This document shows, one piece after another, positions 7,088-10,859 of a stretch of DNA of 64,000 bases. Source of the stretch: a virus; IMG/VR virus record IMGVR_UViG_3300047550_001767, positions 1 to 64,000 of that record, one strand, 5' to 3'. Made by a program: the position numbers and the translations under genes. Numbering within the stretch: the stretch's first letter is position 1; each line of letters opens with the position of its first letter. A model generated the notes under the pieces. It saw only the letters and a program-made list of their open reading frames with translations, searched no databases and was not told the origin of the DNA.

Positions 7088-7567
7088 TTATTCCAATATC
7101 TCAAAGGTAAGATGTATTCTAGGGCTAGTACCAGCATTTACAAACGTATGGGGGCGACCATTGTTAACAATGTATACACTACCGTCTGCAGGCATACTAA
7201 AACACCGATGTTCGTATACAAACCAGCAGCCAGGATTAGTAATTAATGGAATATGAAAGCATAATTGTCCAACATCTACATGCCAATTATAAGCAGTATT
7301 TGGCATTATACTACGATAGGTTATACTATTAAAATCAAATATTTTCTTAATATCATCTGCAACTTCCAGCGTATATGATAATTGTGTTTTTTCATTGGCC
7401 CATTCATTACATTTAAGTACGTGAAACTTTTTCTGCACAAGCACTTGATTACCATGATTGCTGACATCTAGTAATTTGTCTTGAACCGTATAATATTCTT
7501 GTAATAAGGTAGATAAATTTGCTTTGATATTAGGAAATTTGTCAAGAAAAGGCACAGTTGCTTTCAT
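7088..7567 (-). CDS. 2OG-Fe(II) oxygenase (Asp/Asn beta-hydroxylase-like)
   Basis: WHVD...FHIPLITN...PHTFVNAG..PRIHL facial-triad pattern. Start placed at MKATV (7567) because the longer ORF runs into the tmRNA and terminator. Confidence 0.75.
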   Translation of the reverse strand: MKATVPFLDKFPNIKANLSTLLQEYYTVQDKLLDVSNHGNQVLVQKKFHVLKCNEWANEKTQLSYTLEVADDIKKIFDFNSITYRSIMPNTAYNWHVDVGQLCFHIPLITNPGCWFVYEHRCFSMPADGSVYIVNNGRPHTFVNAGTSPRIHLTFEILE

Positions 7568-7572
7568 CAAAA

Positions 7573-7580
7573 TATTTATA
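7573..7580 (-). promoter_or_regulatory. T4-like late promoter
   Basis: Exact TATAAATA 5 nt before the ATG at 7567. Confidence 0.65.
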
Positions 7581-7606
7581 AAAAGAAAGGTCCCGTAGGA
7601 CCTTTC
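7580..7606 (-). terminator. Intrinsic terminator at the end of the tmRNA coding piece
   Basis: GAAAGGTCC-TACG-GGACCTTTC, a perfect 9-bp stem followed by TTTTT. Confidence 0.85.
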
Positions 7607-7926
7607 CTGACTATTGGTTAATAAGGGTGTCACCCCCATCTAGTGTGCCCTTAGGCTGCTAGAGCAAATGTTTCATCATTTGCGTTTACTTTGTTTTACG
7701 CTAATTACGTTAGTCGTCTTTCGGACTGTCTGTTTGGGTACTACTTGCCCTGTCGAAACTAGTCATCCCCTCTGGAGGATTTCCCCATCCTACTAATCTA
7801 GACCATTCACGTTCTGTATAGAACAAATTTCGTGGGCTATCTACTAATTTGGTGGAGATGGTGGGATTCGCACCCACGTCCAAAACATTTTTCCCGTCAC
7901 TTCCTACAGTCATATCAACCTCTACT
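7585..7926 (-). ncRNA. ssrA: Circularly permuted (two-piece) tmRNA; tag ANDETFALAA*
   Basis: The acceptor piece ends GGAC-GTGGG-TGCGAAT-CCCAC-CATCTCC-A-CCA at 7850. After a 79-nt spacer the coding piece starts GGGGATG at 7770, giving a 7-bp acceptor stem with G3-U70. The tag frame 7683-7651 reads GCA AAT GAT GAA ACA TTT GCT CTA GCA GCC TAA. The 5' boundary is approximate. Confidence 0.95.
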
Positions 7927-7931
7927 ATAGG

Positions 7932-7938
7932 TATTTAT
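7932..7938 (-). promoter_or_regulatory. T4-like late promoter for the tmRNA
   Basis: ATAAATA immediately upstream of the acceptor piece. Confidence 0.55.
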
Positions 7939-8159
7939 TCGGCATTGCTTACAAACTCATTGAGTTTCTTTGCTTCTAGAATAATATCTTCTGTAGTCGG
8001 TGCTTTGGGCATTGGTGGAAACGGTGCATTAGGATTTACATCCCGTGCAGCATTCCATTGCATTTCCAAATTTGATCTTTCGTAAAAGTATGGCTCAAAG
8101 ATGCTTTCCTTGGCCAGTCTTAATAGATCCAGACGGATCTCGTATGGTGATTTGCTCAT
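7935..8159 (-). CDS. Small phage protein (PYEIRLDLL...A..L..FVS), function unknown
   Basis: 74 aa, strong AGGAGG RBS preceded by a CA-rich leader, TTAAATA at 8206-8200. Confidence 0.8.
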   Translation of the reverse strand: MSKSPYEIRLDLLRLAKESIFEPYFYERSNLEMQWNAARDVNPNAPFPPMPKAPTTEDIILEAKKLNEFVSNAE

Positions 8160-8202
8160 AATTACCTCCTGTGTGTATGTGTGTTTTTATAAGCAAATGT
8201 AT

Positions 8203-9258
8203 TTAATCATTAAAATTCGTTTTTAAAAAATTTAATCTATCACTTGTTTTTATTAATAACGGATCTATATGATTGTTTTTTACAAAGTTGGGTATAAAAT
8301 TTTCATCATATGCCAATTTAATAGCGTGGTTTCTATTATACAAAATTTTATCTCTAATAGTATCTTGCACTTTACCTAAATCTTGTAAGGGAGTACCTAC
8401 AATTCTTTTCATACCTAAGCACATTTGATTATACCTTAACTCAGTATTTTCTGTGCTATCAAAACTATAATCAAATAATTCATCATATAACTCAAACCCT
8501 AAATCTTTAATAAACTTGTTACTACCCGCACAACCTGCTATTAAAAAGGGTTTGCCTAAAAGTAACGGGGCTATAGTTTTTTCTGTGATGAAAATTGCTC
8601 TATCTGTTGTTTCACTTACAAGTTGAAAAAAAGAGTTATAATATGCTAGAGGAAAAAATCCTTGATCTTTTTCTGTAGTAAATCTTTCATCTATTACACT
8701 CAATCTATCATCATAATATTTAAATTGATATGAATCTTCAGGTCTATTATAATAATATTTGTGCCAAGAATATACACTATGCTCTAATAAGTTGTGTTTA
8801 CATACTGTGTCTATTAAAAGCCTTCTATGATTGTGACCTTTATTATTAAAAAAGATAAAGTGATGATCAAAGTTTTTCTGATATAAATCTGCCAAAACTT
8901 GACTACTAGATTTAATACCTCTTTTTTCTAGGTGATAAGGATGAAAAAATTGTTCAAATGCTTCTCTGAAAAAAACTTCTGGCCAATAAATCACTTCAAC
9001 ATTTTTTGGCTTAATTAGTTCTTCAGGATAAAATGTAAACGAACTATGACATCCTACTATTGCATAGATTTTTAAATTTTGTTTATTTGCCGCTCTTATT
9101 ATTTTATCATAGTATCGTATACGAAAATATTCAAACTCAGGATGGCAAAAAAGAATTATGCCATCAAAATTCTCATTGTATATTCTATCTATTTTTTGAT
9201 TATAGGTATGGTCATCTATATAATTAGCCTCCCATACATTCATGTGCCAGAAGTTCAT
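8203..9258 (-). CDS. Glycosyltransferase-like protein (ET...(T/S)EK..P...PF...GF...D.S(Y/F)D family)
   Basis: VSETT..IFITEKTIAPLLLGKPF...GFELYDELFDYSFD; paralogous to three genes in the 21-32 kb region. Confidence 0.55.
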   Translation of the reverse strand: MNFWHMNVWEANYIDDHTYNQKIDRIYNENFDGIILFCHPEFEYFRIRYYDKIIRAANKQNLKIYAIVGCHSSFTFYPEELIKPKNVEVIYWPEVFFREAFEQFFHPYHLEKRGIKSSSQVLADLYQKNFDHHFIFFNNKGHNHRRLLIDTVCKHNLLEHSVYSWHKYYYNRPEDSYQFKYYDDRLSVIDERFTTEKDQGFFPLAYYNSFFQLVSETTDRAIFITEKTIAPLLLGKPFLIAGCAGSNKFIKDLGFELYDELFDYSFDSTENTELRYNQMCLGMKRIVGTPLQDLGKVQDTIRDKILYNRNHAIKLAYDENFIPNFVKNNHIDPLLIKTSDRLNFLKTNFND

Positions 9259-9363
9259 TAATAAAATATACCGTAGGCTACACACCAAACTTCAAGTAAC
9301 AATTTATATGCTACATAACTAGCCAAATAGGCTAAAATTATCTTAAGTATTAACTCTTTTGTA

Positions 9364-10670: not shown

Positions 10671-10846
10671 GTTTCGCTTCGGCTTGGATTCGAACCTTGT
10701 CCTAGTCTTGTCGATCTGCACTTCCCACAGTACTGACCGAAGCTGTTTTTCTGGTTTATCTCTAGCACCTGCAGAGTGCCTTGATCCTTAAACTAAGCCA
10801 TCGCTATGCGACAAACACTACACCAGAAGGTTGTGCGGCTGTGAGA
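10671..10846 (-). ncRNA. Candidate structured ncRNA, family unassigned
   Basis: Non-coding, relatively GC-rich gap after an exact TATAAATA (10855-10848), with multiple complementary segments and a GGTTCGAATCC T-loop motif. Confidence 0.55.
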
Positions 10847-10859
10847 TTATTTATACTTT

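Follow-up and report, generated by a model that had tools for sequence, protein, structure and literature searches.

A gene for a permuted, two-piece transfer-messenger RNA (tmRNA) lies on the minus strand of a 64,000-nt stretch of viral DNA, positions 1 to 64,000 of the IMG/VR virus record IMGVR_UViG_3300047550_001767. This whole stretch is further referred to as the window, and coordinates refer to it unless another locus is named (L numbers). The single gene found by ARAGORN in the window is a permuted tmRNA gene at 7560–7942 (minus strand) with the tag ANDETFALAA*. The Rfam family beta_tmRNA (RF01850) matches at full length at 7582–7967 (minus strand), with the score of 124.1 bits (cut-off 84) and E = 2.5e-37, and the family tmRNA_permuted (RF04321) scores 128.9 bits (cut-off 47). 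The rest of the Rfam clan scored 54.6 for alpha_tmRNA, 50.5 for cyano_tmRNA (below the cut-off) and 28 bits for one-piece tmRNA. RF01850 is the best model of its clan and exceeds the gathering score; the window gene is a member of beta_tmRNA. Because of this E-value and the covariation across homologues described below, the tmRNA call is far beyond chance.

The gene order is permuted: the 3' half of the tRNA-like domain, ending in CCA at 7850, lies upstream of the 5' half, which begins with G1 at 7770. An earlier note on this DNA had proposed a permuted two-piece tmRNA with the CCA end at 7850, the GGGGATG start at 7770 and a 79-nt spacer. The ARAGORN permuted call and the full-length matches to RF01850 and RF04321 bear out this assignment, and all three details are read in the sequence, on the minus strand. 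The features of the gene are as follows.

7850–7911, minus strand: acceptor piece, 3' half of the tRNA-like domain (Rfam alignments, pair counts, per-sequence check)
7911–7906, minus strand: outer-helix 5' strand GACUGU, in the acceptor piece
7887–7881, minus strand: P2a 5' strand UGUUUUG, in the acceptor piece
7877–7861, minus strand: T-arm, with the loop UGCGAAU at 7872–7866, in the acceptor piece
7860–7854, minus strand: acceptor 3' strand CAUCUCC, followed by A73 and CCA at 7853–7850, in the acceptor piece
7771–7849, minus strand: intervening segment of 79 nt with two predicted hairpins (sequence, fold)
7582–7770, minus strand: coding piece (Rfam beta_tmRNA full-length alignment, covariation)
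7770–7764, minus strand: acceptor 5' strand GGGGAUG, in the coding piece
7763–7752, minus strand: D-loop analogue ACUAGUUUCGAC, in the coding piece
7752–7746, minus strand: P2a 3' strand CAGGGCA, in the coding piece
7729–7724, minus strand: outer-helix 3' strand ACAGUC, in the coding piece
7713–7701, minus strand: hairpin CUAA-CGUAA-UUAG before the tag, in the coding piece
7651–7683, minus strand: tag frame GCA AAU GAU GAA ACA UUU GCU CUA GCA GCC UAA, i.e. ANDETFALAA* (ARAGORN)
7608–7637, minus strand: candidate H-type pseudoknot after the tag, seen by eye; S1 GGGG (7637–7634)/CCUU (7626–7623), S2 UGAC (7632–7629)/GUCA (7611–7608)
7580–7606, minus strand: intrinsic terminator GAAAGGUCC-UACG-GGACCUUUC followed by UUUUU; GC-rich 9-bp hairpin at 7606–7585, matching the beta_tmRNA terminal hairpin and present in the minimum free energy (MFE) fold

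The acceptor stem GGGGAUG/CAUCUCC-A-CCA is paired at all seven positions (7/7) and carries G3-U70, the discriminator A73 and an encoded CCA. The T-arm stem GUGGG/CCCAC (5/5 paired) covaries; its loop UGCGAAU has G at position 55, and the D-loop analogue has AG rather than GG. Two inter-piece helices were found, P2a (UGUUUUG/CAGGGCA) and the outer helix (GACUGU/ACAGUC). The tag frame starts with the alanine resume codon GCA and ends with the ALAA degron and the UAA stop; the UAAAC context upstream of it is invariant in alignment A1, a MAFFT alignment of 16 phage and 3 bacterial copies used for the covariation analysis. The G3-U70 pair, both inter-piece helices, the tag, the terminator and the non-canonical T-loop UGCGAAU, all listed in the earlier note, are present in the sequence. 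The fold of the precursor is more stable than those of shuffled sequences (z = −3.67). The terminator is absent from the output of a simple terminator scan.

Conservation in phages and bacterial relatives

A scan of IMG/VR with the tag-coding pattern yielded 34 contigs, and in 29 of them ARAGORN found a permuted tmRNA with the identical tag. All tested same-tag viral copies are assigned by Rfam to beta_tmRNA (99–187 bits). In alignment A1 the outer helix is paired in 97%, P2a in 97% and the T-arm in 99% of cases, and the numbers of pairs altered on both sides are four, five and three, respectively. The covariation score equals 0.331, compared to 0.178 for shuffles (0/500) and 0.085–0.131 for slid partners. 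The acceptor columns are one off in the MAFFT alignment, and the acceptor stem was therefore examined sequence by sequence. It is paired at 7/7 positions with G3-U70 in 42/42 parsable permuted tmRNAs, which comprise at least seven sequence variants. The hairpin before the tag also covaries (CUAA/UUAG vs CUGA/UCAG). Judged by this covariation, the gene is under purifying selection. For the pseudoknot downstream of the tag, S1 is paired in 89.5% of A1; S2, poorly aligned by MAFFT, is paired in 44.7% and shows compensating sequence change, e.g. UCCAGGU/ACCUGGA in L015. With this partial support, the pseudoknot is plausible. Nearly all tags of 103 further phage copies end in AA, most often in ALAA, which implies selection on the degron. 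The length of the spacer is 24–45 nt in 14 bacterial copies and 4–176 nt in phage copies.

At least 120 bacterial genomes, from several families, have exactly the tag ANDETFALAA, and all 115 genes recovered from them (115/115) encode one-piece tmRNAs. The carriers belong to Burkholderiaceae, Neisseriaceae, Colwelliaceae and other families (Paraburkholderia, Burkholderia, Caballeronia, Pandoraea, Eikenella, Kingella, Colwellia, Thalassotalea, Thiomicrospira, Francisella and other genera). Hence the resemblance to beta- and gammaproteobacterial tags, which the earlier note had taken as a hint at the host, stands with these 115 one-piece tmRNAs, but the tag does not fix the host. Naming the host from it was rejected, given that the tag is spread over several bacterial families, all with one-piece tmRNAs.

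Beta-type permuted tmRNAs are rare in the GTDB order searched (3/151 sampled genomes; 4/61 genomes of one family). They were found in 9/9 genomes (nine species, 1.8–2.7 Mb) of one low-GC genus (G179, G213–G220; loci L196–L206), at loci with the GC content of 40–45% and with the tag ANDESYALAA. The low-GC carriers overall (loci 36–45% GC) have the tag ANDESYALAA or ANDENFALAA. The tag of the nine-genome genus is also present on several phage tmRNAs with G55 (e.g. L305, L353, L365), a possible host link.

The closest sampled bacterial copy is about 73% identical to the window gene over 128 nt. On the phylogenetic tree the window gene falls into a sub-clade with L036, L008/9 and L014 (support 99/98), sister to L016 (100/100). 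Sixteen of the 18 distinct phage sequences are placed apart from bacteria, though weakly supported; the data neither establish nor reject monophyly of the phage copies (p-AU 0.39), in a test biased by the selection of the phage set by tag. None of the conclusions depends on the unpublished genome G030.

The T-loop/D-loop elbow

In the canonical T-loop, U54-U55-C56 pairs with the D-loop GG, and position 55 is near-universally U or pseudouridine. Among all T-arms examined, about 146 bacterial ones have U55, and G55 was confined to the window and nine viral contigs. When IMG/VR was scanned for a tRNA-like end of the G55 type, at least 119 contigs matched; for the G55 contigs listed, each of the 103 ARAGORN calls is a permuted tmRNA, and the tags are of about 47 kinds. 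Every G55 copy has AG-N-(U/A)UCGAC as its D-loop analogue, and U55 copies have GG-N-UUCGAC. Positions 18 and 55 are G/U in 145 sequences (112 bacterial one-piece, 14 bacterial two-piece and 19 viral) and A/G in 116 viral ones; the lone exception is a parsing artefact. A18/G55 was seen in 0/126 parsed bacterial tmRNAs, and a narrower exact pattern of the G55 end (GGGTGCGAWTCCC...CTCCACCA) in 0/401 genomes sampled across the phylum Pseudomonadota. Nothing similar to the G55-type end was detected among INPHARED phages by blastn with the whole gene, the 40-nt tRNA-like end and two other G55 members.

For 12 tested G55 members the best Rfam model is alpha_tmRNA in 10/12 cases and beta_tmRNA in 2/12, so that the elbow variant occurs on both body types. 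The tree of 119 distinct sequences, built with both positions masked, requires five state changes, three of them forced by well-supported branches, and the D-loop base follows each time. With three to five independent switches, a sign test on elbow covariation cannot reach significance. In tRNA, G18 pairs with pseudouridine 55. By analogy with tRNA, A18/G55 looks like a coupled change of the tertiary pair and not like its loss. No paper describing this variant was found in the literature, which is not proof of its being undescribed. As for the independent phage lineage suggested in the earlier note, the A18/G55 elbow on viral contigs only and the position of most tag-selected phage copies apart from the sampled bacteria speak for it, but that grouping is weak.

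Two RNA-library molecules carry the same kind of end. A lake RNA library (run X20, record 7; aligned to 7850–7887 of the window) contains a G55-type tmRNA with 4 nt (CUAC) between ACCA and GGGGAUGAAC. A 4-nt spacer, the shortest seen, also occurs in three IMG/VR loci. In RNA run X17 (record 5; aligned to 7848–7882), a contig with the depth of 151 has the same G55 T-arm and acceptor end, with a terminator hairpin directly after ACCA-AA. It may be an RNA consisting of the tRNA-like domain (TLD) only, an acceptor piece transcribed on its own, or a G55 tmRNA of the one-piece kind. The exact patterns of these two molecules (ACCA-CUAC-GGGG; ACCA followed by the terminator) were not found in IMG/VR.

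Upstream open reading frame, promoters and gene neighbourhood

The region upstream of the tmRNA contains an open reading frame (ORF) of 74 codons, further referred to as p74, and two promoter-like elements.

7935–8159, minus strand: p74, 74-aa ORF, function unassigned; strong Shine-Dalgarno sequence, predicted helix-loop-helix, C-terminal LNxFVS
8160–8183, minus strand: CA-rich leader ACACACAUACACACAGGAGGUAAUU and ribosome-binding site AGGAGG, before p74
7932–7939, minus strand: box AATAAATA resembling T4-type late promoters, 20 nt before the first tmRNA helix, conserved in four lineages
8184–8193, minus strand: conserved promoter-like element GCTTATAAAA(A) before p74, with the box TATAAAAA at 8191–8184; nearly identical in the window, L036/37, the L008 group and L016

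Homologues of p74 (30–86% identity) adjoin a permuted tmRNA in 38 viral loci and are on the same strand in 36/36 measurable cases. Three arrangements occur, with the p74 homologue 165–313 nt upstream of the tmRNA, directly after it, or about 1 kb downstream of it. The protein is encoded in at least 577 IMG/VR stretches; among the best 80 loci of these (L323–L402), a permuted tmRNA lies within 3 kb on the same strand in 23/80, and the tmRNA end is usually about 24 nt before the ATG. The family has invariant P5, E7, R9, W35, two prolines and the C-terminal LNxFVS. The AlphaFold2 (AF2) model is a helix-loop-helix with pLDDT of 93. No match to p74 was found in Pfam, PHROG or PDB sequences, none by Foldseek for the confident model, and no real match by tblastn against INPHARED. 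In the phage Melnitz, ssrA is directly upstream of a late 'transcription coactivator' (PMC9004378). The idea, taken from this gene order, that p74 is a gp33-like late co-activator was left unsupported, as no Pfam, PHROG, PDB-sequence or Foldseek match was found. The leader ACACACAUACACACAGGAGGUAAUU is near-identical in four lineages, though the coding sequences have diverged to 59–86%, which suggests a conserved translational enhancer or RNA element.

A combination of NATAAATA and (C/T)CTATAG is retained in four lineages, with between 20 and about 165 nt separating it from the tmRNA. In T4-like phages NATAAATA is the box of late promoters; the 88.7-kb virus record to which the window belongs contains it 19 times, and 11 of these occurrences are in the intergenic part (about 5%), typically 19–70 nt before gene starts, including those of baseplate wedge and virion protein genes. 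Two features of T4 late promoters were found, a TATAAATA-like box upstream and a phage-encoded gp55-type sigma factor. The late promoter proposed earlier is partly supported, by the conservation of the AATAAATA box in four lineages and by the gp55-like sigma in the record, but the overlap of the box with the TAA stop codon (7937–7935) of p74 weakens the case, and the contigs of a relative in RNA libraries start some 240 nt before the box (8181/8175), beside TATAAAAA, and not at 7926. A σ70 reading, TTGTAA-N19-TATAGT, was rejected for its wrong spacing and since it is not retained in L036; the tmRNA promoter is absent from the output of a simple σ70 scan. The distant homologues L007, L010 and L040 have textbook TTGACA-17-TAnnAT promoters. 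An exact TATAAATA is also located at 7573–7580 (minus strand), 5 nt before the ATG (7567) of a gene for a hydroxylase-like protein with no Shine-Dalgarno sequence between, and the same arrangement is seen in L008 at about 2395–2410. Such spacing would mean a late mRNA with little or no leader, unless the start codon was called wrongly.

The relative mentioned above is about 92% identical over the locus, and its contigs are present in four lake metatranscriptome runs. They cover 7614–8181 (two runs, with Illumina adapter abutting both ends), 7611–8175, and 7615–7976 plus 8016–8197. These are discrete records of about 570 nt that comprise p74 and, after it, both tmRNA pieces with the spacer between them, stopping a few bases short of the terminator. 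They suggest a p74-tmRNA co-transcript of about 570 nt, and p74 is probably co-transcribed with the tmRNA. No RNA-library match covers 7300–7610, where the relative may be too diverged; this was not used as evidence.

The window belongs to an 88,673-nt record with CheckV completeness of 26%. The last 24 kb of the record encode a gp6-like baseplate wedge, a gp5-like hub/lysozyme, virion proteins, a gp55-like late sigma (L003:13474–14406) and gp46/47-like SbcCD; the record is a fragment of a T4-like phage. Related contigs reach 326–332 kb, and locus DNA is present in freshwater, sediment and aquaculture metagenomes (20 runs, 13 studies, RNA runs included). The tmRNA is flanked by auxiliary genes for NAD synthase, a MoxR-type ATPase, a kinase, the hydroxylase-like protein and AdoMet decarboxylase. 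The order p423-p74-tmRNA-hydroxylase-p888-kinase-MoxR-NAD synthase is common to the window, L036/37, the L008 group and L016. Given this conserved order, the tmRNA is a stable resident of the phage group and not an assembly accident. No tRNA gene was found in the 88.7-kb record.

Several other observations were made at this and related loci. The 361-aa ORF at 8203–9288 (minus strand), between p423 and p74, has no family match, and L036/37, the L008 group and L016 lack it at this place; either it is an insertion specific to the window phage or the others have lost it. The COG2908 RNA motif (RF02939, cut-off 58.7), a cis-regulatory candidate, has full-length matches at 10796–10840 (minus strand, 73 bits) and at L036:6183–6227 (minus strand, 65.7 bits). 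In the phage, its neighbours are the gene for AdoMet decarboxylase on one side and the 423-aa ORF on the other, and an exact TATAAATA lies a short way upstream, at 10855. In a different phage group (L015, L021, L024, L028, L029, L034, L039; contigs of about 97 kb, GC about 0.42), a permuted tmRNA with the same tag lies amid an array of 11–18 tRNA genes.

Interpretation and comparison with known systems

We consider the locus to be a functional ssrA, as predicted, whose product is a two-piece tmRNA of betaproteobacterial type and whose carrier is an uncultured giant phage, T4-like and from fresh water; we put the probability of this reading at roughly 0.84. It is built on the identity of the gene, its intact determinants, covariation, conservation and synteny in phages, and the presence of the precursor region in RNA libraries. 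Two-piece processing, charging, tagging, the timing of expression and the use of host SmpB are what we infer. One precursor would be transcribed, at least partly together with p74, probably from one or more T4-type late promoters. Host tRNA-processing enzymes would cut it, with RNase P acting at G1 (7770) and 3' trimming proceeding to the CCA (7850), so that the spacer at 7771–7849 would be removed. The products would be an acceptor piece of about 62–77 nt and a coding piece of about 165–190 nt, joined by the acceptor stem, P2a and the outer helix. Via G3-U70/A73 this complex would be charged with alanine; assisted by SmpB and EF-Tu of the host, it would enter ribosomes that have stalled and add ANDETFALAA, a degron of the ClpXP type. 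Such tagging would free ribosomes during infection. The resistance to tmRNA- or tRNA-cleaving toxins suggested in the earlier note is speculative.

Four points weigh against this reading. The acceptor stem is not recovered in the single-sequence MFE fold. Position 55 of the T-loop is G instead of the near-universal U or pseudouridine, and the D-loop GG is changed to AG. No SmpB gene (PF01668) was found in the 88.7-kb record, i.e. in about 26% of the genome, and thus function would need host SmpB or the unseen part of the genome. Finally, the RNA evidence consists of assembled contigs of a relative that cover the unprocessed region only, are blind to mature ends, strand, level and timing, and may reflect DNA carry-over.

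A broader proposal, which we hold to be possible but doubtful, is that A18/G55 marks phage-specific two-piece tmRNAs on both alpha and beta bodies, arisen or exchanged several times and often linked to the 74-aa protein. The variant would be an adaptation that tells the phage RNA from host tmRNA, for instance by escaping a host factor or a phage attack on host tmRNA, or by recruiting a phage partner. The locus would then represent a virus-specific branch of trans-translation and no borrowed host gene.

It is unlikely that the RNA mainly modulates or competes with host trans-translation, e.g. by titrating SmpB or replacing host tmRNA, with the A18/G55 elbow separating the phage RNA from that of the host. 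The occurrence of the variant on at least 119 contigs, all viral, and its absence from the 126 parsed bacterial tmRNAs and, as the narrower exact pattern, from the 401 genomes are in line with such a role. The three to five switches on the tree are a hint of repeated selection or of modules being exchanged in phages. According to work cited in PMC4131195 and PMC11915505, a phage molecule (DS6A) that consists of the TLD only inhibits tmRNA in E. coli. Further, all exact-tag bacteria fetched have one-piece tmRNAs, and the architecture of the RNA may therefore differ between phage and host. However, a pure decoy could do without the tag frame, which is complete and conserved, and without its canonical ALAA degron and resume-codon context; phage tags vary in a host-like manner, as expected if tagging matters, and there is no direct evidence for competition.

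We find it very improbable that the gene is a passenger or relic, i.e. a captured host ssrA or an attachment-site remnant with no role in infection. Genes for tmRNA are common integration sites, with fragments found in prophages (PMC9004378), and the neighbours of the window gene are auxiliary metabolic rather than core genes. Nevertheless, the gene is complete, has its own terminator and retains its position in several diverged phage contigs with compensatory changes. It has no close bacterial counterpart (best match 73–81% identity over about 125 nt), the phage is T4-like, and the locus is seen in RNA libraries. A chimeric contig or misclassified cellular DNA with a bacterial tmRNA can practically be dismissed: the GC content of the RNA gene (0.43–0.44) exceeds the contig mean of about 0.35, as is normal for structured RNAs, and many neighbours are metabolic genes, but T4-type structural and late-transcription genes are on the same contig, the neighbourhood recurs in at least ten independent IMG/VR contigs from different samples, and strand and composition are uniform for all genes.

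That phages encode tmRNAs is known, but no study is known to have shown what a phage gains from carrying a ribosome-rescue RNA itself. Several features add to what has been published: a large group of permuted tmRNAs, found only on uncultured viral contigs, with the apparently coupled A18/G55 elbow change; likewise tags copying bacterial tmRNA tags, the recurrent link to a small conserved phage protein and hints of late co-transcription. The change from G18/U55 to A18/G55 falls at a contact that is invariant in every bacterial tmRNA examined here. The elbow pair thus provides a concrete experimental handle on the discrimination between phage and host tmRNA by SmpB, RNase P, modification enzymes or nucleases. 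The copying of bacterial tags may help in assigning hosts to uncultured giant phages. If the elbow variant is neutral, the locus is another member of a published class.

The beta_tmRNA family comprises the betaproteobacterial two-piece tmRNAs (Sharkady & Williams 2004, as cited in PMC9004378). The window gene and RF01850 are alike in piece order, in the architecture of P2a, outer helix, T-arm and acceptor stem, in the ANDExFA(L/I)AA-type tag and in the terminal hairpin. They differ in the carrier (phage vs betaproteobacterium), in the spacer (79 nt in the window vs 24–45 nt in 14 bacterial copies), in G55 and the AG D-loop instead of U55/GG, and in the linker after the acceptor stem, which is 1 nt shorter in the window gene. 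Caulobacter crescentus has a two-piece tmRNA that works (Keiler, Shapiro & Williams 2000, as cited in PMC9004378). The principle is the same, that is, a permuted gene, a precursor from which tRNA-processing enzymes make two RNAs that pair with each other, alanine charging and tagging; that tmRNA is of the alpha type, cellular and experimentally validated, whereas the window RNA is predicted.

Knowledge of ssrA in phages dates back to the mycobacteriophages of the Bxz1 group; these and Bacillus phage G carry standard non-permuted ssrA genes (PMC4131195), which share with the window phage large size and the presence of ssrA. Two-piece tmRNAs were described by Buchholz et al. 2022 in the T4-like OM43 phage Melnitz and in pelagimyophages, with 53 distinct permuted tmRNAs, 50 of them aquatic, among 18,146 phage genomes (PMC9004378). 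Both Melnitz and the window phage are T4-like aquatic myophages with a complete permuted ssrA. The Melnitz tmRNA is reported to be of the alphaproteobacterial type, marine, with an early promoter and a glutamine riboswitch (PMC9004378), in contrast to the beta type, freshwater origin and late-type motifs of the window. Rfam gave no match to the glnA riboswitch in the window, and neither the window gene nor p74 showed blastn/tblastn similarity to any INPHARED record. The 2025 tmRNA database contains 97,179 sequences, 79 from phages and 11,946 permuted (PMC11915505). The novelty implied in the earlier note is not supported, since two-piece phage tmRNAs are already published (PMC9004378) and the gene has a strong full-length match to a known permuted family, the outcome that the note itself had named as removing it. 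Both the family of the window gene, beta_tmRNA, and the kind of carrier in which it is found were known before.

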